Of a stretch of DNA of 64,000 nt, positions 24,500 through 64,000 are shown piece after piece; position 1 is the first letter of the stretch, and each line of letters opens with the position of its first letter. Origin of the DNA: Raillietiella orientalis (Eukaryota); contig JAYWIR010000002.1 of the NCBI GenBank assembly GCA_036172245.1, positions 3,224,001 through 3,288,000 on the forward strand, in the 5' to 3' direction. The notes beneath the pieces were generated by a model, which saw only the letters and a list, made by a program, of their open reading frames with translations, was not told where the DNA came from and searched no databases. A program made the position numbers and the translations under genes.

Positions 24500-27266
24500 A
24501 ACCCGGATTCTAAAGAAGGGATATTTCGGGACTCGCCAGGCGGCAACGACTCCCGACTCGCCTATGCGGCGCTCCCGTTCGACCTCCCCCCGTGGAGTCT
24601 CCGGGCCAGAAGGACAGCCAGAGGTTTCAGGGCTCCTCACCGGGACCCGCACATTCCGCTTGTGGCTGCTGTGTCGCAACCGATTGGACGCTCTCGCCGC
24701 ATCCATGCCGATGGCCACTGGACGACGCGAGGATGCGAGCACAGGAAGGTGCAAGGCCGTGAATGCCGGCAGCATCGGAGGGTCAGCGCTCTTATCGTCT
24801 GGTGTGGTGTGAAAGGTGACCATCCCCGGTCCTGAGAAAATAAGGGCGGGGACAGGGAATAGGTAGAGCAGCCCTCTCGATAGAGTTTCCCCTAATGGTC
24901 CAGGGGCCCACGATCCGAGATGCGGCAGCTTCCACCTACGCTCTTGCTGCAGCACCCTCGAGGGAGGAGGGGTTCGCTGAGAGGATGAGTGAAAGGAGCT
25001 CTGATAGGGATGCGAGGCTCCCGAGTGACTGGACAGTGGAGCCTCAAAGTCACTTCCTCTTCCTTAAAACCACAAGAGAAAGAAAATGGCAAAACAAAGG
25101 TTCCTCACTCCCCGCAAGGAACGAAAGAAGGCGGGAAATCTGAAGGGGGAAAAAAGTAATCCAGGAAGATGGTGACCGCGAAGGATTTCGCCAGGAATTT
25201 GGGGCGGAATGACGGCCCTTGATGGGACACGAAGAGGCGGAGAAGGCAGTTGCTGAGGAAGGGAGAGGCGCGTCGTGATTCCCCAAGTACGGCTGGCCTC
25301 TCGCTGATGCGTTTAAAATGCTTCTCTGATCTCCGGAGCAGGATGCAGCCAGGTGGGCATCCGGACCCCGACGCAGGAGTCTGGCGGTACCCAAGAGATC
25401 CGCTTTCCCCGTTTCATCTTTCTCCAGGGGGTGCAAGGATCATCCGAGGAAGGGGAAGGGGCAGAGGACCCACGGCCTTTTCCTCAGCGGAAATAGAGAG
25501 CTCGAGCAAGGACGAGAGTCTGCCTCCGCGCTGCGGGCGGCAAAACAACGGAACCAAAAGAACTGTCTCCAGGGATCCGCTTACGAGGCAGGGAGCAGTA
25601 GGTGGGCGGATCTCACCAATCCCTCCTCCCGTCTTCTGAAGGCATCGACTCTCTCCTTCCCGAAAAGGAGGAGTCCGTTTGCCTTCGGTCTCAGGAGCAT
25701 TCGAAGTTGACCCTCCTAGGAGTCGACTATCCTAGGAGTTCCCTAAGAGACTACGGATCACCCGGTAGCGCCTCAGAGCTCCTTTCAGCTGCAACGTCAT
25801 CGCTTCCTTCTCCTCCTCCAGGAAGGCGCATACGGCGAAGCAGCAGCTCTCCTCGCGGCCTCTCTCCCCCTCTCCATCTCCTCTCCATCTAGATGGAAAG
25901 CAGGGCGGTGCTGCCATCTCAGGTCCCGAAGATGTTGATCTTCCGGGCCTGAAATGGCTTTGAGGCGGGAGGCCCCCAGAGCAGAAGGGGCGTAAAGGTT
26001 CCGCCCCTCGGGTGCCGTTGAGAAAGCCTAACGGTGCTGACACCTACCGAGCGTTTTTCCTTCCGCTTCCGCGGGAGGCAGCACCTCAGCTGGATCTGAC
26101 CTTTCTGGCGACATGGAACACCAGGAAAACCGGCGGGAGCCGATTGGAAGAACGAGGAAATGCCTCAGGCGTGTGTTGAGGGTGGCCGCGAGTCGATTTC
26201 AGAAAAAGGGGAGAAATCCCTGGAGTTCTGAGGTTTGCACGTAAAGTCCAGAGAAGTGTTCCGGATCATCAGTAGGCAGGACATCACATACATGCGGAGG
26301 GCTCAAGTTCGAGAAGGGCGCACGGACAGGAGGGAATCTTTCTATGGGATGAGTCTGTACATTTGCGCTTTCCTGAGCAACGCGTTGAAAGAGGACGTTT
26401 CTCGGGGTGCTCCCGCGAAAGAGGCGGACGGGGTGGGTGCAATCCCGTTTTGCCTTCCACACAGTCCCCGAACCCGCATCATCCCTAACAGAGGAATGAC
26501 CTGCCCCTGCCCACCTGAACAGCCGTTCCTCTGAACCGAGTGTGACCTCCCCAGCATCCCCTCTAGCTGCTCACCTCTGAACCGGCTAACCGGTTCCCTT
26601 TCGGCGAAAGGGAAGAGGGAACATACCTGGCTCATCCGTTCCGCGAAGGACGAGTTCTCTTTCCTCCCTTGCATCTCCCGTTCGCCCTTCCTCACCTGCC
26701 TCGGAAAGTCTCCCCTTCCGGGAGCACAGCTTCCCTTGAACTTCCGCAGCTGAGGTTATGAGAAAGCTTTGCCCGGAAGACCCCCCTCCTCCTTCCTTCC
26801 TCCTCCCCTTCTTTTTCTTTCTGGATGAGGCACGCACTCCCTCTGTCGAGAGGTGCCAAGCACAAGTGTGGAGCTCCTCCCTTGGGAAGATCTGACACCG
26901 CCAGGGGACCTGTCCTCCCTTTTGCAGCGGCCCCACGTGCAGAATGGACCACACAGGCGGCAAGCTTTGCGATGGCACCTGACGGCTCCGCTGATGCGGT
27001 GGGGGTTCTTCCCTTCGGCAGGGCTCAACCCTTTCTTCGACTCTCAGTCTCGATGCGACCGCTTCTCGGAGAACACTCTGGAGCCGCAGAGCTAAAGCGT
27101 TCCTGCTGCAGCCTCTGGAGCATTCCAGCAGCACGGGAGGGATAAGAATTTTCGCCGTTCTGCAGTGGGGGTATTCTTTAGGGATTCTTTTGAATAAAGT
27201 TTTCAACTAGCAATAATCACGCCTCACTTTCGCTCCCAGACCGTGATATTGCCCGTGCACAAGGAA
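24500..27266 (-). mobile_element. Decayed LINE copy with U4-like head
   Basis: In order on the minus strand: U4-like head; knuckle remnant (RCHRKACRLCG); THPVRLF ~ SDHPLVRF; RRGPDA ~ AAGPDS; SILNASA ~ SILNSDA; IKGRHSAPN ~ VPGRHMSDN; HTTPDD ~ LAYADD. Confidence 0.6.
27140..27266 (-). ncRNA. U4 snRNA-like sequence (second copy; 5' half well preserved, 3' half decayed)
   Basis: tccttgtgcacgggcaatatcac...gaggcgtgattattgctagttgaaaacttta...aatacccc; gapless 55/71 identity to the 61693-61763 copy. Confidence 0.85.
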
Positions 27267-39403: not shown

Positions 39404-42400
39404 TCAAAACAGTGGTCTCGGTGCTCCGCGATTGGGGACGCATGCTCTTCGATCTCTTGCTTGTTTGTAGGGAGGTTTCCTCAAATTGCGCAGAGAAACG
39501 CCTCGGGGATGGATGCCCATGCCTGGACTTCCAGCGCTCTGCCAGACAATTGGACGACGAAGGGAAGGGGTTCTCCCTATGGTGCGAAGATTTGACCTAT
39601 CTTCACCAAATAAGTCTCTCTGTTCTTCACCACCTGAAAGTACGTCTGAAAAAAATGCCTTTCGAAATCAAATGCCAACTACCTTGAGATTCTTCTTCTG
39701 TGGGCACCTCAGATGACGCCTGCTGGTCACAGGATTCGGTTTCCGAGCTCTGTTGCAGCTGCTGCTGCTGCTGCATCACGTAAGACGGATTGGGTGTGGA
39801 AGGAACACTACGTCCACTGTTTGCATCTTCTTGCTGGCATATATCACTGCGAGTATCGTGACTTTCAGAGCTGTGCAAGTCTCCCGAGTTCTCTCCAAAA
39901 AGGAAGCGCTGCGTCGGAGTCTGTGGGGAGCTCACAGCTTCAGCAAAGCCATCGTCGCGCCGATTCTGGATAAACAGGGTAGGAGTACTGGGCACCGCAC
40001 GATCATCGATTTCCTCGTATTGCGGCTGACTAGATCCTGTTAATCGAATGCCGTCTGCATGAGATCTTTGCACAGCTGATATCAATTGACGTGAACTGCA
40101 AAGGCTGGGGATTGGGGGTTCCAGATGGGTTGTTTCCGTTGCGGATATCCTGGGGCTTTCTACTTCTGAAATGGCATCACAACGCAGAAAAAAGAATCTT
40201 GCCTGTGACTTCATCGTCCTCATCTTCTGCATTGATCTGCAACTGCGCATCTTCCTTACCACTTTCTATGCTCTCCTCTTCTTCATCCAGATCTTCCCCC
40301 AATTCTCGATCCAAATCATTCTCACTTTCTTCCTCAACATTGCTACTTTCTTCATTTGAGTCATCGTTGTCCTCCTGAGTGATCTAGCACCAGAATTAAT
40401 TACACCATGCAAATAAACAACTTTGAAATTAGATATACCCTCATGTCTTCGTCATCTGTGTCAATGACAATAACATCATCATCATGTTCCTCAGTGTCTA
40501 CTTGAGTCTGGCTGGAAATAGGATCAATTGAATCGACTGTTTTCAATTTTTTGGGTATTGAACATCCGGTGGTTACACTTTCGTCTGTTTCTTCTTCAGT
40601 TCTAGTTCTTTTGGCATCATGAGGTTGGGGAGTAACCAATGCAATTGTTAAGGCAGCTTGGCTTTCATTGTCATCTGCATCTTGAGAGGCAGAAGAAAGT
40701 GGGGTGCACACAGGAATTTCTTCTTCTTTCCAGCGAGGTGCTAACGTAGGTTGTACAGCTGCTTGGGGAATTGATGAAGGACCAGGAAGAGGATCACTAC
40801 TATTCTGTACAATGTACGATACTGAAACATCTGTTATGCTAGGAGACTGCTGGGCAGTTGGCATCACAGTAGCTCTGCGGGACGTTTGCTGAACTGTTTG
40901 AGAAAGAGGTCGGATGCTTGCTGTGGGAGTGGATCGGGAGGGGACCACTATGCACGGTGTAGTGACGTGAGATGGCCTGGTGGCTGGGGAGGCGGGAGTA
41001 GCCATTGGTTTTATGTTTGCTCGAGGGGGAGGTTCCAGAGAACAGTTTGCCACAGTCAACTTTGCTCCCTGTATTTAAGAATCGGAAAGACTCAAAATCC
41101 CTTGGAGTGAATGCTTGTTACCTGTTGATGCTGCTGCTGCTTTTGCAAATTCTCCAGCTGTTTCTGCTGAATAGAAAGCTTTTGCTGCAAGCCATCTAAT
41201 TCTTTCCTCAACTGATCACGCTCGGACCGTATTTCATCATTCTCCATGATTACTTGCTCCCTTTCTTGCAACAGATCGGAACACTCCTTTTCTAAGTGTA
41301 CAATCCGGCTTCCAAAATTTTCTCTTGAATTCTTGACCTGATTAGTATCTGCATCATCGGGGGTGTCGAATGTAGAGAATCGGTTTTCCTGGATCTCTTT
41401 CAAAATCTTCTGTAAACGCTTGTTTTCTAAAGTAAGAGTGTTGCACTTGGAAGTGAGCTCCTGGATGCGATGCCGTGCATTCTGGAAGATCCTCCTCTTG
41501 CGATCTTCTTTTTCCCCTTCGCCGTTTACACCTGGAGAGCAAGTCTCATTACGCAGTTCGTCGTTCTCTGATTTCAAACGGATATTTTCGCTTTCTATTT
41601 GCTGAAACTATAAATGCGCTGCATTACGTGAAACAATATGACTCCTTTTACCTCCTGCAAAATTTCCTCCAGACGGGATTCTGTGGCTTTTAGTTTGGTT
41701 GCAACATCAATCTCTAAATGCTGCACTGCAGAAACTTTCGAAGATGTTGACTCACCGGCAAGAATTCTTTCGGATTCATTTGATGCAACTTTTCCTTCCT
41801 CAGTATGAGCTCCATCGTCAAAGTCATTCGTATGCAGCTGCTCTTTCAAATTAGCATGTAGGGAGTCCAGTTCATCATATTTGGCCTGTAATTGTTCATA
41901 CTGGCTCTTATACTTGCGGCCAATATTTTTAACTTGACGTACGTTCTTCTGCAGTTCAAGAATTTCATACTCTTTTTGCTGCAACAATTCCGTTTTTAAC
42001 TCAATCACATGATTGAGATCACTAATTTTTCTTTGTTCTTCTTCTAGTTTGCTAATCGTACTTTTCAGGTGCTCAATTTCTGCTTGCTTGGCATTCAGTT
42101 CTCTCAGCAGTTGCTGCTGCTGTTCCAAGTTGCGTTTCTTAACATCTTCGGTGGATTGGATGTTTTGATGTTTCAACTTCTGCATCTCTTGCTGCAAAGA
42201 CTTGTGCTCCTCCTGGAGATGCTGATGTTCATCATTTAATTGCTTCTGCTCATTTTGCATACGAGTATTCACTTCTTGCATACGCTTGTGTTCTTCCTGG
42301 AAATCGTTTATTTCAGTTTCCAACCGTGCTACTTCTTTCTCGTATGTTCTGCATTCTTCTTGAAGATGTTGCATCTGCGTTTCAAGATTTGTCTTCTCTT

Positions 42401-45400
42401 GGATGACTTTTTGAAGCTCTTCTTCAGCCTGCAACTTCTTGCCTGCTTGTTCGACTAGCTGCTGTGATCTCTGTTGCCAACGCAAAATTTCACTTTTTAG
42501 AATTTCATTTTCTGTTTCCAAAACTTCGATTTGGGCCGTTTGCTCTCCTAATTGACGCTCTATGGGTTCAAGTTTTCCCTCCATCTCCTTGATTTTCTGT
42601 TCTCCGATCTGGACCTGTTTCTGAAATTGGTCGCGTTCCTCACGCAGCATTCGATTACAGTCGGTGAGAGTGGCCATAAGTTCAACTTTTCGAAGAAGTT
42701 CAGAATGATGTGCAGCTGTTAACGAAGTAACCTGCGTGTCTTCCATTACTTTCTGAAGGGCTTTGTTCGCATCTTCAAGTTTCTTCTGGAGCATCTCATT
42801 TTGAATTTGTAAACGGTTTGCTTCTGCTTGTGATACTTCTAGTTTTGTACGAGCAATATCTTTATCCTTTCGCAGATACTTGATGATTTCCATTAACTGT
42901 TCGGAACTACGATTTGTTTCATCAACTGTCGCAAATTCTGCTGCAGATACAAGTCCACTACTATTCTGCCGTGAGTTCTCATCAGTTGATGAGTCCAAAA
43001 AGGATAATCTGCTATTCATCAATTCCAACTGACTATGCAAAGCTTGATTCTGTAAATCTAAGACTTCAAATCGCTCGTGCAACTCTTGCTGCTCATCCAT
43101 TAACAACTTCTCTCGTGCCATCCAAGCAACTTCTTTACTTTCTAGAGATTCCTCAGCCTTGATTTTCGCTATGTTAGCTTCCTCCAATTGCACATTATAT
43201 CCACTGATCTTTTCCTTTAATTCTGATAAATGCTGCATGTCTGCAGCATGCAACAGCAATTCACGTTCATATTTTTCTTGAGACTCGTGAGACATTTGCA
43301 AATATTTTTGTAGTTGCACACGAGACTCATCCTCCATTGATTCCAACACCTGCAAACGATTTTGTGTAACAATCAGCTTCTGCTGACAACTTTCTAATTG
43401 TTCTTGCAAGTTTCCACTGGACTGCTGCGTCTGCTCACGTAGCTGCTTGATTTCCTCCTCCAAATCATTTCTCTGGTGTTCTATGATTATGAACTTCTCT
43501 TCCAGCAATAAATAATGCTTGTGTTTTTCCTGTAAACTGCTTTCCATCTCTTCCCTCAACAGCTGCATTGCAGTGCTTGTTTCATGCAATTCTTTCTCCA
43601 ATGACTCAGCAATATTTTTATATTGCTGGATGTGTTGCTGAGAGTTGTCAAGTTGACTTGTCAAGGATTCGATGTTAGATTGTGCTTCAGTTAGGCGTGC
43701 TTCCAAATCCTTAATGTGTTCTCGTGTGCTATCGGAAGTCACACCACTCAAGAACTGTTTAGGAGTGAAGTTGTTCAAAGGAGCTTTAACAGTTGCTTCT
43801 TGAAGATCCTGTTGCAATTTCATTACAGCACTCTGAGATTCCTCCAGATCACTATGTGCTTTCTCTAGTAACGCCTTTGTGTTTCTCAGACTGGTCTCCA
43901 GCTCACGATTTTCCTTTTCCCAATTTTGGATTGTGTCCCTAAAGAATTCCTGATTGCTTTCCAACTTCTTCTGCAAAACAGTGTTCTCCTTTTGTAAAGT
44001 TTTTACTTGATCTTCAAGCCTCATTTTACTTTCACTGTCAGCTTTATCCAGATTGTTCTTGATAGCTTCCAGATTTGCTATCAGTAGCGTTTGATTGCGC
44101 TGCTCTCGATGAAGAGATTCGTTTTCCTGGCGCGTTCTTGCTTCTCGTAGCTTGCACATATTTATTTCGTCCTGCAGTGTTTGTGACTGCACTTCCAAAC
44201 GGGTACAACGCTGCTGTAAATTCAACAAGTCATCTTTTAAGTGCGCAATGGTTTCTTCATGACGTCCAACAAGTGTGCTGTATTGTTGTTTCTTATCCTC
44301 AGCAAGAGACAACTGCTGCTTGGTACTCTCCAAACTTCGCAAAGCTGCTTGAAGACGTTCATCATTGTATTCGAGTTTTGCCTCTAGTCTGCATTTATCC
44401 AACCTACATCACTTAGGTCACTGTCTGCTATCCCAAGTTTGCTACTTACTTGACCTGTTCCATTTCATCACGACACTGTTGCAAACTCTCTCTTAACATT
44501 TTCTCATTTTGTGATTTCTCCTTCTGGTAGTTCTCAAACTGTTCCTGCAGCTCTTTCATAGATGCTGATATTTCTGGAAGAGCAGTTGTGGTTGCAGGAG
44601 TTGCTGCAACTGTCGTTACAGTCGGAGATACTGGTATTGTGGAACTGTTGTGAACCAGAGCTTTGTACATATCCCGCTGCTGCACAATACTTTCGACAAT
44701 TTGAGTCTGGCAGTCACGTGTCTTTTTGAGCTCATCTATTTCCTTCCATGCTTGCTCTAAATCTTCCTACAGATTTTGCTACAACTAGGAAACATTTCCT
44801 ACTCTTTACCTTCAATGTCTTTGTTTTATCTGAGAGCATTTCCTTTTCCTGTTGTTCTTTTTCATCAGATAATGCCCTTAACGATATCAGAAGTTGTTGA
44901 TTTTGTTGATGCAATTCCTGAATATCACGGAATGTCACCAGATGTTTGCTGATAACCTAGAAAAATGGCTGCATAACGTGAAAATTGCCACTAAGAGTTT
45001 ATGCTTATATCAAATCGAGAGACGTGTTTACAAATAGTGGAATTTTTTTTGTTTACATGCCAATGATGATATGTGGAGAATAATATGAAGAACATAAAAC
45101 GGTAAATGATAGAAGCACTATGCAACCACTTCACCCACCATGCTATCATATGGCATGATGTGTGAACTGATTGCATAGCATGAAGCAACATAACTGAAAC
45201 AAATGTGAGCTGTACATTAAAGCAATTGCACGTTTCAAACATGAAAAAGGAAATCAACGAATTTCAATAAATTAACGTAAACGAGACTAAGATGCTTTAT
45301 AAGATAATGGGGCTTTTCGAAACAACCATACCTCATTTGCTGTGCTTATTTCCTCACTAGGAGTATCTTCTCCCTCAACTGGAACAGAATTTCCTCGATA

Positions 45401-48400
45401 TTCCTCAATTTGTTTTAGCAGAGTACACACTTGTAGGCTCAAATCTTTAATCTGAAGCTCAAGCCGCTCATTTTCTCTATTTGTTTGAGCAATTTCTCGC
45501 TTAGTTTCATGACCTTCAAATTTGAGATGATCATTTTCTTGCATAGCGGCATTCATCTGAGCAGTCAATGCTTCCAATTTATCAAGACATTCTTCGTATT
45601 CTTCTCTCTGTCTTCTTAACAAAGGTGCTCTCGCAGCTATATCTTGAAAAATACGATCCAGAAATTGCCTTAACTTCTGTGCCTCTGTACGCTCCAAACA
45701 CAACTGCTCCGTTACTTTCATATATTCAGAATAAATCTGCGTTAAACTCATACCAGACCGAAACATTTTGCTTGCAGTTGCTGCTGATGGTGAAATGATT
45801 TCAATGCCTTCTTCTATTAAACCTATAGAACAAGTGTACACAGAACTTAAAAGGACAGCGCTCTTACCTCGCTTTTTAGTAAGTTCCAATAATGTATTTG
45901 CATCTTGAAGCTCCCGGTTCAATTCAGAAATTACCTCATCCTTTTCAGCCAGCTTCTTGTCTTTTTCCTGTACAAGTTGTGTCATTTTGGTTTCCAATTC
46001 TCCATACATTGCAGAAGCTTCTTTTAACAAATGTTTCAATTCCTCATTCGCAGCAGCCAGATCGCAACATTTGGTTTCAGCATCTTCACTAGATTCTTTA
46101 TACAAATCTGCAAGTCGCATTTGGACAGTAAGTTGCTTTTGATAGCTTTCCTCCAAATGGAGCTCGGATTCTCGACTTTCTTTCAATTTTTCTATTAACT
46201 CTTCTTCTCTTTTGCGGAGACTTTCCACTTCCTTTTTCTGCAACTTCAGCTCTGATTCTGTCATTTCGAACTATTAGTAAGAAAAATTAATACAAGTAAA
46301 AGAAGAAAAGGGTCATTACTTCCTCAATTTTCTCAGTCAGCAATAGACGTGTTTCCATGTATCTTCTTGTGTTTTCTCGACTTTGTACAGTAAGCTGATT
46401 TTCTAACTGTGAAATCTGAGAATTAAGAAGATCGATTTTGCTTTGAAGAAGATCTTTTTCTTGCTCTATTCTACATTCCCTGTGGTCAAAAACATCAAAT
46501 GAAATTTACAACTCATTATTCACAACAAATTAACAGTTACTTTTCTTGCAGCTTTGTTTCCCTCTCCAAGATTTCCTCCATCCGCAGTAAAGACTCATAC
46601 TTGTGATTATTGGCAACAAGTAATTCCTTTGATAAGTTATTAATTTGTTCCGTGAGATTATTAATTTCAATATTCTTCCTATCAAGAGCTTCAGCAAATT
46701 CTTGACGTTGAGATGTTAGCAACTGATTTCCTTGTTTTAATGCGTGCATTTCAGCTTCTTCCCTATGAAATCATTACAGTCACATTACATGACGAGGAAA
46801 TTTTAACTGCAGCCTGCAAAGAAAATCTAATTGTTCTTTATCAAGAAAAATAAACGGTGTCCCATGAATTGAATCGTGTTCTTGATTTCGTATCAGGATA
46901 TGACCAAAATATTTCCCTGTATTTGAATATTCGATAATACTTCTATCACTACAACAGATTTGAATCCACGCTCACACAAGTGGCATGCATCTACGTATGT
47001 ACATACACTATCAGTATCATAGCGTACGTAATTCGACGAGTAAAATATTCACTCACGGAATTTAAAGATCCTAGAAGAAATTAAATATTGAAAAGTAGCA
47101 ATCCTAAATATTAGAAGAAATGCTCTTTTTTTTAACCAGTTGGTGTGCTTCCCTTTGCCATTTTGCAGAGAAGTCATTCAGCTAACGGATGTTAAGATAA
47201 AGAGGATGCACAAGTCATTAGGAACAATAAAAGTACTTCGTAGATAAAAAGGAAGAGGAACAACTGGGCAATATCTGGAACCGTAGCAAAATCCCCAAAA
47301 CTTTGGAGAGGCAATGTGCGATGCGAGGAAAGACGAAAACCAATGTCAAGTGCGTTATGCTAGCACCGGTTACGTTGAATTTGAAAATTCCGATAAACGT
47401 CGCTTACCAGGCTTTCGACCTTTCACAAACACCACATTCAGAATTAGGAAACATCGAGTGTGTACGTGCTTGGGTAATGAGAAACCCAACTCTCTGAAAT
47501 ATCGTTCGGTGATTGCTGTTAGCAGAAGGGAAAAAATCGCTGCCAAGTTTAAAGAACGGAAACTAAAATGTGCAACAGAGCAGACCTTTGTGCATAACTC
47601 AAAGGGAGATCTTGAAAAAAAAACTCCAAGATGAGCAATTTAGGAATTCCCACAAAACGACATGTTCTTAACAGTGCCAAAGTGTAGATCAACGTAAAAG
47701 CCCTGAAAAGGCGTTGGTCAATTGCATTTCCCCTAATTACAGCCACAAGAACTATTCGTCTTAGTTTCAAGCAGCTTGTCTCTCACGAAGTTTACCTCCT
47801 TACGATTAAGTTGGGGAAGCCAATGCAACTCATCGATACGAATGCAAAAACTAAGGAGAACACCAAAGTGTACTGTGATCAACGAATGAAAAAAACATAT
47901 ATATCTTATTTGAAAACTAGTTAAAGATCGAAGAATGCCAGGTACTTCATAGCACATACGAGGAGGAACAAAACTTCCACTTCGACAAAAATTCAGATAC
48001 AATCTTAAAATGCAGCTATTGTCAAAAAAAGGAATCACGGATCAAAATTGCCGCAAATAAGGTTTCCTAAAACACAGAAACAAAAACCCTAGTATGATGA
48101 GAATGTAGACACATGGGGGCCAAATCTAAAGGATTCATTTGGTTGGGCGAAATACTGATTAGAGGCCACGCGGAAAAAGCAAACTCTGCAAGATTTCAGC
48201 TATAGCATGCAACGAAGAAAACGACGATAGTTCTGGAAGCTGGAAAAACGAAGCAAAATTCGATACGAACGAGTATGTGTATCCTTACCTTCTCCCAAAA
48301 CGAACTGTCCTGGATCACGTATTCCCTACCTACCCACAAAACTATCCCAAATTTTTGCAAAGCCAAAACAGACCAATGGCACAGAAGTCTCAAAATCATT

Positions 48401-53888: not shown

Positions 53889-55997
53889 GTTTCTAACACA
53901 GCTGCGTACGAAATTCACAAAAACGTATCACTCAATAGTTTTATCGTTTCGTTAGGAAACAAGACTTTAGTATAACCTTGTTTCCATTCAAATATTTTCA
54001 TGTACACTTGAGTGGAAATGACAAAATGGTCGATAATGTACAGCTATATACACGAAATCATACACTTACTTCCTGGGACAAAGGATAAACCGATTTTTTT
54101 TTAGTGACAGGTGTTCATATGTGCAGAAAATGGGTATACTAATTTCGGGAACAGTCCAAATGCATATTCTCGCTTATCAAAACACAGCAGATTCACGACA
54201 GACCCCACGACCGTGGACCAGAGCATACCACACTCTCGTACGCACATTCAAGTCCCTACGATCACGCCCTCACTGGACACTCGGCTAACAATCGAAAACA
54301 GAAGACACTCCTCAGCCCAAGGTATCCCACAGCCCTTTTAATTTAGGGGCTTTCTCTGCACAGACGAAGAGATGCAGACAAAATTTAAAGATACCAATCG
54401 ACGACGTTGGGCATCAAGAAAGGACTTTCTTTTTTCGGTTTTTAGATCAGCTTCCCACGCCTCACTCCTATCTGCTATATTCTTTTATTTATGAAATTTG
54501 CATTCGAATTTTGCAGTAAGTTCTCTATTTCACTAATCTATTGCGATCTATATTTTTAATTGTATTATTTTTAATTATATTTTTAATTTTATGAATAATG
54601 AAATACACTCCATTGTGACTGTCATCTCCTAGCGACATTCGTTGTAATTCTATTATTAGTGTATGAATAATTTTCACTTTTTTCCTGTCCACTATAATGC
54701 TTTTTAATAGGTTTCCAAGGTAGCGTTATAAATCATTCCTTGATGAGCTAAATTTCATGAATATTCAATGTAAAAAAACTCGATTTAGATACATTTTTCA
54801 AATAAACGTTCAGCAATATGTAACTGGTTTCAAAGATGCACACTTAGAATTAGATTGCATCGCGGGCTTCTGCATTCCATAAATTAGTAGGGATATTTGA
54901 ACCCAGCAAGAATTAAATGGGGTTTTATAAAGTATCTGTTAATTTGTAATCTATAGCCTCAAGTACAACAATGAAATTTTCAAGTCCAGAAAAGCAAAAA
55001 TGGAGAAAAATCTCTGTCTAATATGATTTTAGACATATCTCCAATGATGCTTTGCGATTTATGAGCTTGTTCGAAATATCTAAAAGAAACTCATCATAAA
55101 AATCAGAAGAAAAAAAAAAACACGTCATAAATTTTACTAATAAAATGGACTCCTATTCTCATTACAGTGAGTGTGTAATGTTAAAAAAACTAAATTTTGC
55201 ATTCTGCTTCAGGGTTGATTCTAGGATTCTAGGACGCTCGAGGAACATTTGCAAACTATGCTTGAAACATTTCAGAAATGCAGCAAAAAGTGCATAACAG
55301 TGCAAATTTATATATTTTACAAGAATAAAGAATTCATCCCCTAGACTTTTTCCATATTAACTTTTTTCATAAAGACATAAATCAATTAGAACTGTTATAT
55401 ATTGGTGCATTCATAGACTGAAAGCTAAAGAGAAAAAAGTCCAAATCAAACAAGTGTAAGTGATAAAGCCTGAATAAGTAATTCAGGAGGATCACTATCG
55501 GAAATTTAGTAATTTCATTATATATGATGACCACAACACAGTTAAAATAAATGCATTCATCTCACTGTATTTGTTCTTTGTCAAACTATTCGAATTAATT
55601 TCCATGAATTTTGAATTGAATTGAATTTCTTTAAAAAATAAGTGCTGAACCGAAGTCTATGTATGGAAAATCCACTAATAGTTTAATTACAATCTGGTTT
55701 AATACCTTTGTTGTCATGCATTTTTTAAAAAACAGAAATCCATCTCGATAAAGTAATCATTCATGAACAATTTAGAAATCAACTGCAGCAGTGAGGCAAT
55801 AATTATACTAGAAAGTTGCAATCAAAATCAATGCAATAATTTCTTTGATATGTGAAAACTGAGGAGAATAATGAAATCTAAAAATTCATGAAAAACGTAT
55901 CATTTTGATTTTCAGAAGCTAACAGCATTAAAGTATCCCGTCAGAAGATAAGTATGCAAAGATGATTTACGTATTAAAATGAAATATGATTTAATAA

Positions 55998-56013
55998 TGG
56001 AAGTCATCATTCT
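55998..56013. repeat. Target-site duplication, left copy (TGGAAGTCATCATTCT)
   Basis: Identical 16-mer at 61796-61811. Confidence 0.92.
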
Positions 56014-56162
56014 GATTTTCCCCAAGTCCCACAGGGGGTGGGGTGAATTTATTTTCTATAAAAATAGCATTCACACTACAATTTTCATTCACACTCTCAT
56101 TCACGCCACGTTTACCAACACTTGTTCACTTGGATGTCCTGGGTTTCACTCGAGTTCTGCTA

Positions 56163-59100
56163 TCAGGTTGGGGGTCCAGATGTTTGTTCCCGGGCGTCGT
56201 CCTCGATCCTCTTCAGGATGAATCTGTACGTCCAGGCTTGGATTCTTCCGCAGTTCCTGATGCCGATTTCCTTCTTCAGGAGTCCTTGGAGGATCTCCAT
56301 CGGAGGTGCGGCTCTCCTGGCTTTCCTCATCTTCCACCACCGCACAAGTATGGCGGTGATGAAGAGGGCGATGGTCGTCCTCACCATGGGATTGTAACAG
56401 GGAACATTACCATCTCCCTGAAACATCCCGGCGAGGATTTCCATTACGGAGCTGGTGGTGCGTCCGATGATCCTTTTCAGGATCAGCCAGTCGTGAAGCA
56501 GTGTGGGACACGTCAAGATGTGGAGTCTTGTGTCAGTGTCACCACACGCCGTGCAGTCTCTGTCGTCCCTCCTTCCCGTGAAGTGCTGTAGTCTGGACCC
56601 CGTCAGGATTCCTCCATGGTAGAACATCAGGAGGTTGTCCTGGGTGTCCGGCGGAAGGTCACTCCTCCAGAGCGTTGTGCCGATCGCCAACAAGTTGATG
56701 CGATCGCTCCCGTAGCGTTCGGCGGCTTCTTGGAGGGCACTGGTGTCCTTTTCCTCGTCTCTGATCATCTTCCGGAGGTTCATTTTGGTCACCCTCGACC
56801 ACGCGAAGTCGTTGTGGTTAATCCACACCTCGCGGGTCTGGTGGGTGAACCTCCCTAACATCATCTCTATGTACCGGAGTACACGAGAATGATGTAGGTA
56901 TCCTCCTCGGCGCCATTCCTGGATCCGTTGCAGGGTAACTCTGGGCCGCTGGTAGATCCAGCTTCTCGTGTCCGGAGGGACCGGAAGCAACCAGGGGATC
57001 ACCAGGATGGACTCGTCCTGCCAGAGTTCCCTGCTTCTTGGCACGATCTTCATCTTGTGCTTTCGCACAAGCCGCTGTTTTCTTCTCCAGGTAGGGTCGA
57101 TGGTGATCCATTCCCCTGCTCGGCCTAGCAGCGCAGTCATCAGGCCTTTCGAGTTGTTCAGCAACAACGCGTAGGCCCTGTGCGCCGCATACGGCCAGTC
57201 ATCCCAGTGAGTGGCTATGTCCAGGATGTGTCGCGTATCCATGATTTCCATGGAATGTGCAGGCGACTTCATCCCGGAACCGCCTTCTTCCCTGGGACGA
57301 CACAGAGGTTTGAGACAGACTCTTGGGCGATAATGGCCCCACAAAGTTTTCCTCTGCAGCTTTTCTACTTCTCTTGTGGTTTCTTTATTCATTCGTGCGA
57401 AGGCCGCCCCGAAGATTATCTTTGGTAGAAGTACTCCGTTCCACAGGTTGGCTCTTCGCTTCATGTTAAAGTCCACTCGAGTGTACTTCGCTGCTTCGTT
57501 GGCCGTTTTCCCCAGGATTTCCGTCCACAGCAGTTTCGACGCAGAGTCGTCGCCGATGTAGACTCCCGGGTACTTGGCCGTGTCCACCGTACGGAATCCA
57601 CTCCCCGTTAGAGTGGAGAGGTTCAGGATTCCGACGGGCAAAAGCTGGCTCTTTTGGGCATTGATTTTCAAGCCCAGTCCCTGTTCCATGAGGTCGACCA
57701 CATCCCGGAACGCTCGTTGATTCCTCTCTCCCTTGATGAAGAAGAGGAGATCATCTGCGTATGCCAGATGGGTCAGGTGCTGACCATCAATGGAAATCCC
57801 TGATAGACGACCGCTTCTCTCGATGTAAGAAGACAGCGCCTCCATGTATATGACGAACAGCATTGGACTTGGCGAGTCGCCCTGCCGGACTCCTCGTTCC
57901 ATCCTAATTGCTGCCGTCTCTTGGCCGTTGATTTTGATACGGCAGTACTGGTTTTGGAGTACCGCCCTTACGAAGTTGCTGAAGTGTTCCGGAAGCCCAA
58001 GCTTCTCCAGAACCTTCAGCAGCATCCCGTGGTCGATGGAGTCGAAGGCCTTCTCCATGTCGGTGAACGCCAGCACCAGGTTCTCGCCGACGTATCGGCT
58101 GAGACCGACGGTGGCCTGGGCACACTTAACATTGTCAGACATGTGTCGTCCTGGGACTGCACACGTCTGGACCGGAGAGATCAGCCTCGACATGACCCTG
58201 CCTAAGCGGTTGGACCAGATCTTCGCCAACCACTTGGCATCTGAGTTTAGAATCGAGATCGGCCTCCATTGAGCGATCTGCGTGAGATCGCCTCCTTTTG
58301 GCAGCACTCTCATCCTACTCTCGTAGAAGGATTCCGGAAGTCGTCCTTCTTCTCGGATGCAGAGTGTCAACTGGTGGAACAAACGCAGGTAGGCGTGCAG
58401 GTACCGCTGATAGTGCGAGATGGGTACACTATCAGGGCCTGCTGCCACATCCTTGCGAAGCTGCCCAAACGCAGTCTTCACTTCCTCTTCGGAGAAATCC
58501 TCCTCCAGTCTATTTCTTTGGAGGTCGTCCGTCCTTTTCTCGAGGTAACCCAGGAAGGCTTGCTGACTCGAGCGGCAGAGATCTTGTCGTCGGAAGTGTC
58601 TCGCGTAATGCCTGTGAAAGGCTTCCGCGATATCCTCCGACGTGTGCCGCTCTTTGCCGTCGTACTGGATGCAGAAGATATCTGTGGCCAGATTCCTCTT
58701 TTCCAGCACGCCGACCTCCCCTTTCGTGTTCTGGAAGACGTACCGACTCTCGTACTGATCGAAGTGCTTCGAGAGGGAGCGATCTTGGATGTTCAGCTCC
58801 CGGTACGCTTCCTGCCTCATGCGCTTACAGAAGTACTGCATATTGCAGAACAGATGGATTCTGTGCTTCAACCTGTCCCAGTCGGCGACTCTGCGGATGG
58901 TGGTGTCCCGCAGAATCGCCTCGATGACCTCCTGGTGACAGGGAAGCGTTTCGAACCAGGCGGGCATGCAGATGAGCGCCGCCCTGGTGGCCTTTTCCCT
59001 ACGGGGATTTTCAGTGCGGAGTGTAAACCGTACCAATGGGTGATCGGACAACAGGTGTGGAATGTCACGAAAACCCTGGATGCGGTTGTCTATCTCCGCA

Positions 59101-59681
59101 CTGTGGAGGACGTGATCGATCGGTTTGTGGCTAGCTGTTCGCCACAAAAGTCCGAACTCGTCGGACAGCCGCCGATACGCCGCTCTTCCCCTTGCATCCT
59201 GAGAATACTTGATTTCATCAAGGATGTTGAAATCCCCAGCGACGATGACGATGTCCTTCGGTGCCACTCGTTTGCGGAGTTCTTCTTGCAGTTTCTCCGC
59301 GCACCGATGCTTGATCTTGTGCGGTCCGTAGACGTTCACCAGGAAGAGGTGAACGTTACTGGACCAGGACAGTCGCACGCCGATTACTCTGCCCGGTACC
59401 GGACAGAAGGTTTCCAAAATGGTGTGGGCGAGCTCGTTCTTGATGAGGATCGCCACCCCCATGGTCTTCTTCTGTCCCTCGCTGGCGAACAGTTGTCCGT
59501 CGAATCGGCGTTCCATCTCCAGGGCGTTCTGTTGCCCGAGACGGTGGATTTCTTGTAGGCACACCACCTTAAATTTTGCGATGGTCCGCATGATGATCTT
59601 TCTCTTTCCCTGGTCCGTCAGTCCATTCACATTCCAGGAGGCGATGTTAATCCTCCTGGCACTGGACAGCGGCGAGGCCAT
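56163..59681 (-). CDS. LINE ORF2: AP endonuclease + reverse transcriptase + C-terminal CCHC finger (1172 aa, intact)
   Basis: APE motifs SWNVNGL, CLQE, GVAIL, NVYGP, GDFN, IDHVL, SDH; RT motifs GPDS, WRPISILN, DMEKAFD, GVRQGDSPSP, YADD; CTAC...H...C. Confidence 0.97.
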   Translation of the reverse strand: MASPLSSARRINIASWNVNGLTDQGKRKIIMRTIAKFKVVCLQEIHRLGQQNALEMERRFDGQLFASEGQKKTMGVAILIKNELAHTILETFCPVPGRVIGVRLSWSSNVHLFLVNVYGPHKIKHRCAEKLQEELRKRVAPKDIVIVAGDFNILDEIKYSQDARGRAAYRRLSDEFGLLWRTASHKPIDHVLHSAEIDNRIQGFRDIPHLLSDHPLVRFTLRTENPRREKATRAALICMPAWFETLPCHQEVIEAILRDTTIRRVADWDRLKHRIHLFCNMQYFCKRMRQEAYRELNIQDRSLSKHFDQYESRYVFQNTKGEVGVLEKRNLATDIFCIQYDGKERHTSEDIAEAFHRHYARHFRRQDLCRSSQQAFLGYLEKRTDDLQRNRLEEDFSEEEVKTAFGQLRKDVAAGPDSVPISHYQRYLHAYLRLFHQLTLCIREEGRLPESFYESRMRVLPKGGDLTQIAQWRPISILNSDAKWLAKIWSNRLGRVMSRLISPVQTCAVPGRHMSDNVKCAQATVGLSRYVGENLVLAFTDMEKAFDSIDHGMLLKVLEKLGLPEHFSNFVRAVLQNQYCRIKINGQETAAIRMERGVRQGDSPSPMLFVIYMEALSSYIERSGRLSGISIDGQHLTHLAYADDLLFFIKGERNQRAFRDVVDLMEQGLGLKINAQKSQLLPVGILNLSTLTGSGFRTVDTAKYPGVYIGDDSASKLLWTEILGKTANEAAKYTRVDFNMKRRANLWNGVLLPKIIFGAAFARMNKETTREVEKLQRKTLWGHYRPRVCLKPLCRPREEGGSGMKSPAHSMEIMDTRHILDIATHWDDWPYAAHRAYALLLNNSKGLMTALLGRAGEWITIDPTWRRKQRLVRKHKMKIVPRSRELWQDESILVIPWLLPVPPDTRSWIYQRPRVTLQRIQEWRRGGYLHHSRVLRYIEMMLGRFTHQTREVWINHNDFAWSRVTKMNLRKMIRDEEKDTSALQEAAERYGSDRINLLAIGTTLWRSDLPPDTQDNLLMFYHGGILTGSRLQHFTGRRDDRDCTACGDTDTRLHILTCPTLLHDWLILKRIIGRTTSSVMEILAGMFQGDGNVPCYNPMVRTTIALFITAILVRWWKMRKARRAAPPMEILQGLLKKEIGIRNCGRIQAWTYRFILKRIEDDAREQTSGPPT

Positions 59682-59697
59682 GAAAGGGGAGAGAGTC

Positions 59698-60170
59698 CTA
59701 CTTGTTTTTGCGCGCCTTCCTTAACTTCTTCTGCTGGGGAGACTTGTTAAGTTTCCCCGCTGAAGAAGTGGGTTTTTCGCTACCGGCATCGCTCTCGGTG
59801 CCGGTGTGGTCGGTCGACTCGGGATCTTCTCCGGAGCGTTCTGCCTTGGCGATCACCTTGCGCGGGAGGGTCTCCAGGGAGACCGTCGCGCAGTAGACCG
59901 CCTTGACTTCCGAGAGCTGGGCCTCCAGCTTCTCTCGCTCCGGCTCCACAACCATGCGGTTGACTTCGTCTTGAGCCTCGGAGATGCGGGTCAGGAGTTG
60001 CTCCTGTTGCGCCTCTGTCTGGCCTTGACGAACCTCCTCCGCTAGTTTGACCACCTCCTCGGTGAGTTGCAGGGCCTCCTGCGACTCCGGGGTGGGTTCC
60101 GGCATCTTCACCACTTCCTCTGTCACCTCCATCTTCTCGCCTTCCACTGCTGCAACCTCACGAGTAGGGG
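59698..60170 (-). CDS. LINE ORF1 C-terminal part (acidic/coiled coil), out of frame with the N-terminal part
   Basis: ORF 59698-60147 and its upstream open frame; adding one C to the C6 run at 60167-60172 fuses it to ORF1. Confidence 0.7.
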
Positions 60171-61457
60171 GGTTTGTTGCTCCCTCACGAGCATCTTCCT
60201 CTTCCCCTTTTTCCCTATCTCGACGAACCCGTCCGCCGAGACCGGAGCTGCCTCCCTCACCTTCTTCTGTTTGGCTAGCTGAGGTTTGATCACCTCAGCT
60301 AGCACCCTTTCCCTCACGGGGGATTCTCCACGGATTGTCCGGTAGTTAGCAAACTCCGGACAACTCCATTTCGCATGCCCGGGTTGTTTGCAGAACGAGC
60401 AAACTTCGGGCATGGTGCAATTTCGGACCACGTGGCCCATCTTTCCGCACCGGAAACAGCGCGACCTAGGGCACGCGCCCATCCGGTGGCCAAAATTTTT
60501 GCAGCCGGTGCAAAAGATCGGCTGCTGCCTGTATCGAATTGAGACGTCCTGCGACGCCTCGTCGATATGCACGTTACCGGGGATTTGCGCCCCCTCCTTT
60601 AATTTTATCTTGGCGATTAACTCGCCCGAGAAGATGTTTCCGGAGATGTTCTGGGTTTTCATCTCCAGAACCTCTCCGTATTGGGACAGGAAGTCCCACA
60701 CCGTTTGTCTCTCGGTGAGGATGCCAAGGCCATTCACGAAGACGGTCGTGTAAGGCATCTCACCGATGCCTTGCACCATCTTCCCCTGTATATTGATGCC
60801 CTTTTCGATAAGGGCCTCCCGCAGCTCCTCGCAGTCTGTATAAAGGATAAATCCCGCCGAGTTCGGGATTATCGCCTGCAGCCGGTCGAAATCAACATTC
60901 GTCTTATAGAGGGCGCAGTATACCTCCCTCACATTGTTGAACCGGATCAATCCGGTTTTGAAAATTATCGGCTTGGACGCCGGGCTGAGTCGAACCATCG
61001 GCTCCTTCGTTCGAGTGATGATTTCACTCGCCGGTTTGCCGAATGCTCTATTCGGTTGGGCAGAGGCCTGCCCCGCCGTCACCGCCGCATACGAAAACGG
61101 CGGTTTCGCCGCCGCCGCCGAGCAAGATGGCGTCGCACCTTGCCCTGTGTGCGCCGCGTGGACGCCCGCGGCTCCCGCCTGGGACGCCGCCGCCACCGCG
61201 GGCGCAACCCTCGTCGTCGCCGTCGTCGATGTCGCCGTAGGCGGGACCTTCGGCATCGCCGCCGCCGGCACGACCTTCCCCGCCGCGGGCGCGATCCTCG
61301 GCGTCGCCGCCGCGGGCACGACCTCCATCGCCGTCGCCGCGGGCACGACCCTCGGCATCGCCGCCGCAGGCGCAGCAAAGCCTGCCGCGGGCGCGACCCT
61401 CGGCGTCGCCGCTGCCTCCTCGCCACTGCCGCATATTACCTCCATGTGTTCTTCCAT
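60123..61457 (-). CDS. LINE ORF1 (gag-like; Ala-rich repeats, RRM-like region, three CCHC zinc knuckles)
   Basis: CTGCKNFGHRMGAC, CFRCGKMGHVVRNC, CSFCKQPGHAKWSC; TVFVNGL...FLSQYGEV; SYAAVT and DGFVEIGKK motifs. First ATG at 61457; the frame is open upstream to ~61640. Confidence 0.9.
   Translation of the reverse strand: MEEHMEVICGSGEEAAATPRVAPAAGFAAPAAAMPRVVPAATAMEVVPAAATPRIAPAAGKVVPAAAMPKVPPTATSTTATTRVAPAVAAASQAGAAGVHAAHTGQGATPSCSAAAAKPPFSYAAVTAGQASAQPNRAFGKPASEIITRTKEPMVRLSPASKPIIFKTGLIRFNNVREVYCALYKTNVDFDRLQAIIPNSAGFILYTDCEELREALIEKGINIQGKMVQGIGEMPYTTVFVNGLGILTERQTVWDFLSQYGEVLEMKTQNISGNIFSGELIAKIKLKEGAQIPGNVHIDEASQDVSIRYRQQPIFCTGCKNFGHRMGACPRSRCFRCGKMGHVVRNCTMPEVCSFCKQPGHAKWSCPEFANYRTIRGESPVRERVLAEVIKPQLAKQKKVREAAPVSADGFVEIGKKGKRKMLVREQQTPLLVRLQQWKARRWR
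61190..61415 (-). repeat. GC-rich imperfect tandem repeat encoding AAATPRVAP-like units in ORF1
   Basis: Repeated gccgcgggcacgacc / cggcgtcgccgcc units. Confidence 0.7.
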
Positions 61458-61624
61458 GGGGGTCGACGGCTGCTCCACTCCTTGGATGTGCCTCCTTGCG
61501 GCTGCCGTTGCTGCCGCACTTCCCGTTTGGAGGACTTCCACCTCGGGTCCTTCGGCGCTGCTGCTGCTGTCGGGTATTTCCCTCGGTGGCACAGTCACTT
61601 CCACACTAATCTTCGGCAGGCACT

Positions 61625-61764
61625 TGCCCTGTGAGGGCACACAAAAATTGCCGCGGCAGTGGTTTTACGCACTGCCTTGGCGGGGTATTGGGTAAAGTTT
61701 TCAACTAGCAATAATCGCGGCTCAGTCGCCTTCCTCGCCTACGATACTGCCCGTGCGCAAGGCA
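61625..61764 (-). ncRNA. Full-length U4 snRNA-like sequence forming the LINE 5' UTR
   Basis: gccttgcgcacgggcagtatcgtag...gagccgcgattattgctagttgaaaactttacccaataccccgcc...ggcaatttttg...gccctcacagggc follows the metazoan U4 layout: stem II arm, k-turn stem-loop, stem I arm, GAAAACUUU, CCAAUACCCCGCC, central hairpin, Sm site AAUUUUUG, 3' hairpin; ~140 nt. Confidence 0.93.
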
Positions 61765-61795
61765 GGTAGTAGAACTGCTACTACCTAGTTGTGTG

Positions 61796-61811
61796 TGGAA
61801 GTCATCATTCT
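61796..61811. repeat. Target-site duplication, right copy (TGGAAGTCATCATTCT)
   Basis: Identical 16-mer at 55998-56013. Confidence 0.92.
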
Positions 61812-64000
61812 ATTTTTTGTTTCATAAGGGTGAATAAAGTAAATTTACATTAGAAGTATTTATATATATTTTAATTCGTTAGGTGGATCTCTTTTGCATA
61901 CTGATTACTACTGAATTTATTGCCTGAAGTCACTTGAGTCAATGAAATCGCAGCTTATTATATGAAGGGATTAAAAGGGCCATGAGTGGAATAGCTCTTA
62001 AAAATGAAACCTGCAGAAGTATTGAGCTTCAGAAAAGAGAATAGGAAGAAAAAAAAGAATAATTTAAAGAGTTTTAATTATTCATTGTAACCACAGTCAT
62101 TCTCTAATAATCTTATGGTGGTTCTCATACTAACAGTCATGTCTTATTGTTTGATTTCACACTTCATAGATTCCTACTCACCACAAATCTATATTTAAAA
62201 AGAAATAATTGATTATCTGTGGAATCATCTGCATGATCTGCATTCAATCTCATTTCATAATTCATAGTAATGAAAAAAATACACTCCATTTCTTACAAGT
62301 CCTCTTCTACAAAGAGAGGAAATTTTGATGAGACTTTGTAGTGCTCGACGAATAAGAACTGGGCCACTTGTTGATTTCTTAGTGGAACAAGACATTTCAC
62401 ATGTGACTATCCTCTACAAACGACGAAACTACCAAGAGCCCATGCAGTCCTCACACTTCTCATGTGCGTAGAATCCCTGCTTTAGCTAGAGAGTCATCCA
62501 GTAAAAGTATTTCAAGTATTCCAGGACTTGAAGGTGTGTGGATTAATGCAAACAGAAAGCCCCTGTTCTCTCCAATATTAACTTCTCCTGATGTCATCTT
62601 TGTATGTCAAACCATAGAACTTTAGCTGGTACGCTGCAAGTTCTATCCCAGTGGAAACGGCGGAAGAATCAGCATTCACTCTGTTTATGTGTACAAGGAA
62701 AGAGAAGATAGTACTACAAGATAGTACTATGGACTGTTGCAGAACGATTTTTCCAGTCCTTGCAGTCGTGAAGCCTTAAGTGATGTCTTTCAGCTGCGGT
62801 TTGGCATACGTGTTTACCTGGTCGGACGTGTACATCCAGGGAGAAGCATGCAAGAGTTAGAAAATAACGGTCATGTAACAGAGACAAGGGATTCATTTTA
62901 TGCTCAATAAAACAATCATGCAGTTTCACAGGCTTCCTAATTTCGTTCCGATGCTTTTGTTGCAACCCTTGTGGTAACCTCAGTTGCATCTTCAGTGTGC
63001 CCTCCACTAAAACGATTCATTCACGATGTTCTTTCCGATAATGCATTTTGCAGGGTTTTTTTTTCTCTCCAAGGCCCGTTTTTCTTTAAAAAAAAGAATC
63101 ATTAAGACGTGTTGCGATAGTAGTACCACTCAGCAATAAGCAAAAACAAGCTAGCGAAAGGGAGCACAGAATGGTGGAATCGGTTTCCTGAACACGAATG
63201 TATTAGCAGATTTAGAGCCTAGTATCATAATTAATCAGTAGATAAGTAAGATGTAGTTGGGGACTTTTTTTGGTAACTTGCCACATGTCTAAATACTTGT
63301 CTTCTACTTTGATTTAGTTTTTTTTTTTTTTTAGACTTTAACAACAAAACATGCTTAATAGCTTCCTTGTTTGAACAGTTTAAGAAAGTTGAATTGTATT
63401 TTGTCGAATGTTTGCAATCCAAATCGTGTGATCAGTTCTCCAAATTCATGCAATGGCAAAGTCTGCTCATGTCAAACACAAGAAAGATTCTGGTGGCCCA
63501 GAAAACACAAGAAAAACTTGGAAACGATCAGCTAAAGTTCAAAGGAAAGAACTTCGACTATATATTCTTTTCGCAGTACCCTTGCTTTCCATTGCAGCTT
63601 ATATGACTTTCAAGGGATATCTAGAAACACGAGTAAATACATCACACAAGTCTCCGAAGGTATAATTTGTCATTAAAGAAAGTTTCCATTTTTCTGTGCC
63701 CAAGTAATGTCCTTCAGAAAATAAATGGTTTCTATGAACTGTTGTAAGTAACCAGACTTTATTTTCTGGAAAATTTTCCATTTCTTTATGACCAAAAGTA
63801 TAAAAGCGAATCATTGTGCTTCTAAAAAGCAGTTCTAAACTTTCATGAGCTACTTGGTGACCAAACAAGATTTTGGATTACAGATATCTGTTTTCTAGGT
63901 TGTACATAAGTCTGGACATGATGTGCCTAATAAATTTTGGGGTAGTTATCGACCAGGCTGTTATTTTGGTTTAAAGACCCGCACTGAGCAGTCATTGTTG

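Follow-up and report, generated by a model that had tools for sequence, protein, structure and literature searches.

The window, by which is meant the whole stretch of 64,000 nucleotides that was analysed, contains two sequences that are related to U4 snRNA. Both were found in an Rfam scan with the U4 model RF00015, both lie on the minus strand and both score above the gathering threshold of the model, which is 46 bits. The first of these, referred to as copy 1, is located at the 5' end of a LINE, a non-LTR retrotransposon, and the interval 61708-61750 covers its 5' stem-loop. The second, copy 2, is only a partial match and is found within a GC-rich block of ~36 kb (~60% GC) that runs from position 1 of the window to about position 36000. 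A third U4 copy was not found in the window, either with a permissive Rfam scan or with motif searches allowing up to 3 mismatches. The coordinates of the features are collected in Table 1.

Table 1. Positions of the retrotransposon, its component parts and the two U4 copies, numbered along the window.
Feature	Position	Strand	Description
Whole non-LTR retrotransposon	56014..61795	-	5,782 bp; 56.7% GC in 34% GC flanks
5' target-site duplication	61796..61811		AGAATGATGACTTCCA, read on minus strand
3' target-site duplication	55998..56013		Same 16 nt, perfect match
5' leader	61765..61795	-	31 nt; perfect 8-bp hairpin GGUAGUAG/CUACUACC
Complete U4 snRNA, copy 1	61621..61764	-	144 nt
U4 match, copy 1	61627-61764	-	RF00015, 96.7 bits, model 1-138
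U4 5' stem-loop, copy 1	61745..61714	-	AUCGUAGGCGAGGAAGGCGACUGAGCCGCGAU
ORF1	60123..61457	-	444 aa from first ATG; CCHC zinc knuckles
ORF2	56163..59681	-	1,172 aa from first ATG; AP-endonuclease and reverse transcriptase domains
U4 match, copy 2	27185-27266	-	RF00015, 54.8 bits, partial, model ~1-79
U4 5' stem-loop, copy 2	27247..27216	-	AUCACGGUCUGGGAGCGAAAGUGAGGCGUGAU; bulge UGG, loop GAAA

A single 16-bp target-site duplication encloses the leader, the U4 sequence and both open reading frames, and hence U4 copy 1 is a part of the element and not a neighbouring gene. Read from 5' to 3', the LINE is composed of the leader hairpin, U4, a further ~165 nt of 5' untranslated region, ORF1 and finally ORF2. 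The leader hairpin has a folding z-score of -3.66, and none of 200 shuffled sequences folded as well. Three Pfam families are matched within the LINE, PF03372 (3.6e-15), PF00078 (3.7e-31) and PF00098 (3.7e-05), and a zf-RVT match in ORF2 is weak (E = 0.032, 15.3 bits against a cut-off of 27.5 bits). The 3' end has no poly(A) and terminates in ...GGGACTTGGGGAAAATC, with an AATAAA some 35 nt upstream of the end. The closest database relatives of ORF2 are L1-like proteins, several of which have a zf-RVT domain. The carrier of copy 1 is an intact and evidently young LINE that would be described as L1/Tx1-like from its architecture, the clade assignment being limited by an ORF2 identity of only ~25% to these relatives. 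No further copies of the LINE were detected in the window with blastn and tblastn. The N-terminus of ORF1 is rich in Ala and Pro and repetitive, the segment being encoded by imperfect 27/48-nt tandem repeats at 61233-61416.

The stretch containing the LINE was also found in one public sequencing run, X1, the contigs of which were aligned to window positions 55900-62000. A total of 191 contigs aligned, with 28 that are at least 99% alike, 28 at 95-99%, 40 at 90-95% and 95 at less than 90%, and ORF2 is covered by more contigs than the 5' part. The LINE family is multi-copy and diverged, although the contigs give no copy numbers. One contig joins 61136 to 61621 and thereby provides another route between the 3' end of U4 and the body of ORF1, which suggests that several members of the family have the U4 head and that it is inherited within the family. 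Two contigs join the exact 3' end of the LINE, at 56014, to the inside of U4, one at 61742 (U4 nt 23) with the 3-nt microhomology ATC and the other at 61723 (U4 nt 42) via 19 filler nt. In at least three other contigs the LINE 3' end is found beside unlike AT-rich flanks, with loose ends at 56017. The junctions between the 3' end and U4 could be head-to-tail tandems, template switches, circular products or insertions into U4, and circular LINE products are described in a portion of PMC3510499. One X1 contig is without 61137-61620, or has that span replaced. Two further runs with the same organism label, X2 and X3, one of which derives from the X1 sample, returned 2 and 3 pieces of 18-39 nt respectively and hold next to none of 55900-62000, the unique flanks included.

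The U4 of copy 1 has an Sm site, AAUUUUUG, and a 3' stem-loop. Two other X1 contigs have joints at 61621, about 6 nt beyond this 3' stem-loop; one of these is a skip joint that lands there and the other was deduced from a shorter side of 122 nt. The joints point to a U4 unit of mature length, ~144 nt, and suggest that the unit in copy 1 behaves like the mature RNA. The 5' stem-loop of copy 1 starts with a 5-bp outer stem and continues through a bulged A, a 3-bp C-stem, the bulge GAG and the tandem G.A/A.G pairs to a 2-bp stem that is capped by a GCGA loop. The signature of a kink-turn, a 3-nt bulge followed by tandem sheared G.A pairs, can be recognised in the sequence of both copies. As isolated hairpins neither copy folds significantly better than expected (MFE z = -1.1 and -1.2), and the MFE structure of the whole LINE 5' UTR fails to reproduce the U4 5' stem-loop.

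Copy 2 is without the Sm site and the 3' stem-loop in its Rfam match, and the local alignment of copy 2 to the Rfam model stops near nt 79. Beyond ~nt 79 there is a weak likeness to the 3' half of U4; local alignment scores as high were obtained with 21 of 500 shuffles and with 2 of 107 other windows. The two copies are homologous from U4 nt 1 onwards but not in either flank; blastn detected no similarity between the flanks outside U4, and no upstream motif is common to both copies. A homology that is confined to U4 and starts from nt 1 is compatible with U4 RNA having been captured on two separate occasions. Copy 2 also appears to have no LINE around it. A relaxed tblastn of positions 1-36500 with ORF1, ORF2 and 36 distant reverse transcriptase homologues gave no RT or ORF1 similarity below E = 0.08, and the 3' tail motif of the LINE was found at the end of the LINE itself but nowhere downstream of copy 2. 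A candidate direct repeat around copy 2, identified by eye, is imperfect (8/9).

The GC-rich block in which copy 2 sits has a CpG observed/expected ratio of 0.86, as compared with 0.63 in the adjoining AT-rich, gene-bearing DNA (32-46% GC), and it contains long ORFs in all frames. No Pfam family was matched in 17 long ORFs of the block (20 ORFs were scanned from the 48 of at least 200 aa in the window). Three inverted-repeat pairs are found within it, at 23201-23772/28462-29034 (98%), 10847-11290/12028-12471 (98%) and 13273-13458/15018-15199 (94%), the first of which brackets a 4.7-kb segment that holds copy 2. A long near-palindromic hairpin at 29255-29396 gives sub-threshold matches to several miRNA precursor models on both strands, the best at 38.7 bits against a gathering threshold of 96; it probably arose by chance in the GC-rich sequence.

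Between the 5' stem-loops of the two copies there are 13 differences in 32 positions, the count given in the sequence-only reading, yet all 10 pairs are standard in both. Eight of the differences fall in paired positions and none of them breaks a pair. The same reading had drawn attention to three pairs that are changed on both sides, and these were found again on recounting: from copy 1 to copy 2, G-C becomes A-U, G-C becomes U-G and G-C becomes C-G. Two more pairs are changed on a single side (U-G to C-G and A-U to G-U). The tandem G.A pairs, said to be invariant, are indeed GA/GA in both hairpins, with 3-nt bulges of GAG in copy 1 and UGG in copy 2. When 13 random substitutions were applied in neutral trials, all 10 pairs survived in 162 of 300,000, and the pairs together with GA/GA and a GNRA loop survived in 2 of 300,000. 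With 8 substitutions placed only among the 20 paired positions, no pair was broken in 114 of 300,000 trials, a figure that rose to 1,047 of 300,000 with a transition bias. From these counts the pair-keeping divergence is not a matter of chance, and a pair of neutral pseudogenes is ruled out by the simulation.

The divergence is also unevenly distributed along U4. The flanking segments differ at only 3 of 39 positions, as against 13 of 32 in the hairpin (Fisher p = 0.0014), and both of these segments pair with U6, the stem II segment having 3 differences in 18 positions and the stem I segment none in 21. A bona fide U4 (L006) has one of these three changes as well, namely the C>U in UUGCGCA. 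Within the hairpin there are 6 sites that are free of pairing, G.A or GNRA constraint; 5 of these have changed, and the sole unchanged one is L3, the third nucleotide of the bulge. Free sites that are close to saturation next to static U6-pairing segments represent the constraint profile that is to be expected of a working U4.

For comparison with the U4 genes of other eukaryotes, a 22-mer common to both copies was used to retrieve 44 U4 loci from metagenome contigs, and 18 distinct U4 5' domains from these loci were aligned with the two window copies (alignment A2). The same helix is formed throughout, with 99.5% of cells paired and double-sided changes in 8 of the 10 pairs; none of 500 shuffles reaches the observed covariation values, and slid controls collapse. 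As the same covariation is seen in bona fide U4 genes, covariation of the hairpin is a general property of U4. In the hairpin, copy 1 is no closer to copy 2, from which it differs at 13 of 32 positions, than to unrelated U4 genes, from which it differs at 10-22 of 33-34. A strict U4 pattern gave no matches in the metagenome contigs. A copy-specific 20-mer had 11 matches in genome contigs, which were rejected as chance matches in bacterial coding sequence without a U4 continuation, and none in viral contigs. No LINE proteins were detected by tblastn within 2 kb of the 44 metagenome loci. In one metagenome contig from another eukaryote (L012:1135-1303) a U4 is cut at ~nt 76 and has a perfect 11-nt direct repeat, AACACGAAATT, which demonstrates that 3'-truncated U4 retro-copies shaped like copy 2 do occur.

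The window copies share with the known U4 snRNA (RF00015), and its SNU13/15.5K and PRP31 kink-turn, the same helix, bulged nucleotide, 3-nt bulge, tandem G.A pairs and covariation, but differ from it by a G at L3 and by a 4-nt GNRA loop on a 2-bp stem. These two traits are common to both copies, as is CACGGGCA in stem II. It had been noted previously that the bulge is without the usual U at position 3, and this holds: L3 is G in both copies, as against U in 18 of 18 distinct domains in alignment A2 and, by eye, in 44 of 44 metagenome loci. The claim that both loops are GNRA tetraloops also stands as far as the copies themselves are concerned, with GCGA in one and GAAA in the other, but the cap is not unique to them, as a GUAA tetraloop can also be formed by one of the 18 aligned domains (L003). 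In human U4 the bulge is numbered A29-A30-U31, as given in a section of PMC2952850, and the bulged U is reported to fit into a pocket of SNU13, according to passages of a review (PMC7277114). For this reason a working U4 with a G at L3 would be unusual. The retention of G, at a position that SNU13 normally reads as U, in a pair of copies whose other free sites are close to saturation bears on the strictness of that contact.

It is considered here, at about even confidence, that the selection acted on the U4 RNAs themselves, before two separate captures took place, with copy 1 captured into the LINE and copy 2 as a retro-fragment. Two different U4 RNAs would have been copied into DNA on separate occasions. 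Copy 1 would most likely have been joined to the LINE at the RNA level: on reaching the 5' end of a full-length LINE RNA, the reverse transcriptase may have changed template to a U4 snRNA, or the U4 and LINE RNAs may have been ligated, as in the U6/L1 chimeras. A chimera in which both ORFs were kept would then be able to pass U4 on as its head, and copy 2 would be a separate U4 retro-fragment. The 13 differences would date from a time when the source RNAs still functioned as U4 snRNAs, with selection maintaining the U6-pairing flanks as well as the stem and its tandem G.A pairs whilst the remaining positions drifted, and would later have been frozen by the two independent captures. The covariation is thus most simply seen as ordinary U4 biology that has been frozen in two retro-copies, and if the U4 genes of the host carry the same features then ordinary U4 biology is what the covariation represents.

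On this account the G at L3, the GNRA loop on a 2-bp stem and CACGGGCA would be traits of the source U4 family, belonging to the host lineage or to a donor. Both the capture mechanism and the presence of G at L3 in the source genes are what we infer. A source family with a G at L3 would be a notable lineage trait, one that plausibly fits a fast-evolving metazoan. A weaker variant has the real U4 of the host carrying G at L3 together with a co-adapted SNU13 pocket. Alternatively, the shared G is possibly explained if both copies come from a U4-derived lineage that is out of spliceosomal service. Several points count against the capture reading. The leader of 31 nt that precedes U4 is not explained by a single template switch, the candidate direct repeat around copy 2 is imperfect, and the capture reading needs a source family with G at L3, which is found in 0 of the 44 other U4 loci. 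Moreover, should the 3' half of copy 2 truly be U4, an intact 5' domain would lie beside a decayed 3' domain, contrary to the expectation for a retro-copy that decays neutrally; if copy 2 were homologous to U4 throughout, the reading with a lineage outside the spliceosome would gain weight.

The joining of snRNA and LINE sequences has precedents. Chimeras of snRNAs with L1 arise by template switching or ligation, as set out in parts of PMC4494074 and of bioRxiv 10.1101/2025.02.02.635956. Such chimeras of the U6/L1 type, as far as they are described in the corresponding parts of these two sources, resemble the window element in that a full-length sense snRNA is located 5' of a LINE within one target-site duplication. 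They are distinguished by the LINE part, which is here full length, with both ORFs and no 5' truncation, by the identity of the snRNA, which is U4, by the 31-nt leader that here precedes the snRNA and by the seeming inheritance of the chimera within a family. A second precedent is provided by SINEU, a group of SINEs with heads derived from U1 and U2 snRNA, for which the addition of the 5' head by template switching has been proposed (sections of Kojima 2015, PMC4494074). These SINEs are like the present element in that the 5' head of the retroposon is a pol II snRNA, for which no internal promoter is known. Here, however, it is an autonomous LINE that carries the head, the head derives from U4, and an invertebrate-like metazoan takes the place of a crocodilian as the host. 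Known, therefore, are snRNA/LINE chimeras and snRNA-headed SINEs; in the open-access literature searched, no description was found of a full-length, coding-competent LINE that has a whole U4 in its 5' UTR and seems to transmit it.

The alternative that survives best, and which is held only tentatively, places the selection within the elements. Here, after one capture, a U4-derived head lineage would have come under selection of its own for a non-spliceosomal role, with copy 2 as the relic of a sister head. Nuclear import, retention or stability of the RNP could possibly be served in this way, either by a bound protein, of the L7Ae family or of the Sm type, or by base-pairing to U6. The change of U to G at L3 and the GNRA cap would then be innovations of that lineage. 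The sequence-only reading had likewise pointed to the element lineage as the place where RNA structure was under selection. What stands of this view is the divergence that keeps the structure, the non-U bulge position and the position of copy 1, which truly is the head of an element. Selection within the element lineage is not shown: there is no flank homology, the homology starts from U4 nt 1, the same covariation is present in U4 genes and the U6-pairing segments differ at just 3/18 and 0/21 positions.

Several observations nonetheless favour a head lineage. The LINE family is multi-copy and diverged, and the joint 61136>61621 makes the head seem inherited; the U4 of copy 1 is flawless (96.7 bits) despite the divergence of the family that carries it. 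G is found at L3 in both copies, as against 44 of 44 with U, at the only free site of six that has not changed, and copy 2 may represent an intact 5' domain beside a degenerate 3' half that is without an Sm site. Against this, copy 2 is tied to no element by flank homology, and ordinary U4 genes covary alike. Copy 1 is, moreover, the sole head sequence that was read, and two sequences cannot separate selection within elements from selection before capture. Conservation of the U6-pairing segments also counts against the head lineage, as we know of no rationale for it in a transposon.

If a head lineage does exist, then this would be an autonomous LINE family with a heritable and complete U4 as its 5' module, the 5' domain of which is under structural selection of its own, with the kink-turn fold and the U6-pairing segments retained, the SNU13-specific U replaced by G and the stem capped by GNRA, a proposition to which rather low confidence is attached. 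Were it true, the LINE RNA would owe its stability or its targeting to the nucleus to an assembly of the snRNP type, involving an Sm ring, a protein of the L7Ae family or pairing with U6. A U4-carrying LINE would naturally test whether an snRNP assembly module serves a transposon, and would also illustrate how the 5' UTRs of LINEs are renewed.

It is improbable that the element is a U4-targeting LINE, in which the U4 at the 5' end would be a co-transcribed or transduced piece of the target and the copy in the window an off-target insertion. Elements that are specific for rRNA genes, or that are of the Keno/Utopia type, carry target sequence. The two X1 contigs that join 56014 to internal U4, at 61742 with the ATC microhomology and at 61723 via 19 filler nt, could be understood in these terms, as the 3' end of the window LINE family abuts U4 in both. 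LINEs of the Tx1 clade that are aimed at snRNA genes are known, such as Keno, which inserts in U2 (PMC4494074), and Utopia (PMC4640811). The window element resembles this group in its L1/Tx1-like architecture, with CCHC knuckles in ORF1 and APE and RT domains, and in its association with an snRNA sequence. The window copy, however, is not inserted in U4: its target-site duplication is AT-rich and is not U4 sequence, and the upstream U4 is complete and not one half of a target. The junctions in the two contigs fall at different positions of U4 (nt 23 and nt 42), one of them with filler, which is better fitted by template switching, tandems or circles than by a site-specific nick, and at least three other contigs have the LINE 3' end beside unlike AT-rich flanks.

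It is very unlikely indeed that copy 1 represents a functional U4 gene of the host located beside a LINE, with copy 2 as a paralogue: whilst copy 1 is a full-length, high-scoring U4 with its Sm site and 3' stem-loop intact, an adjacent gene is made unlikely by the position of the target-site duplication, inside which U4 lies with only 31 nt upstream, the two copies have no upstream motif in common, the 5' UTR and the ORF1 frame follow U4 directly, and copy 2 is without the Sm site and 3' stem-loop. Compared with U4 genes in general, copy 1 differs in having no external promoter, being located inside a transposon, and copy 2 in having neither an Sm site nor a 3' stem-loop.

The AT-rich part of the window contains a homologue of the nucleoprotein TPR/Mlp on the minus strand, formed of two large exons at 41595-44408 and 45290-46270 with open frames of 937 and 327 aa. 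This homologue is only ~30% identical to any animal TPR in the database, a divergence which, at the level of sequence comparison, suggests that the host is a poorly sampled and fast-evolving metazoan with few introns.
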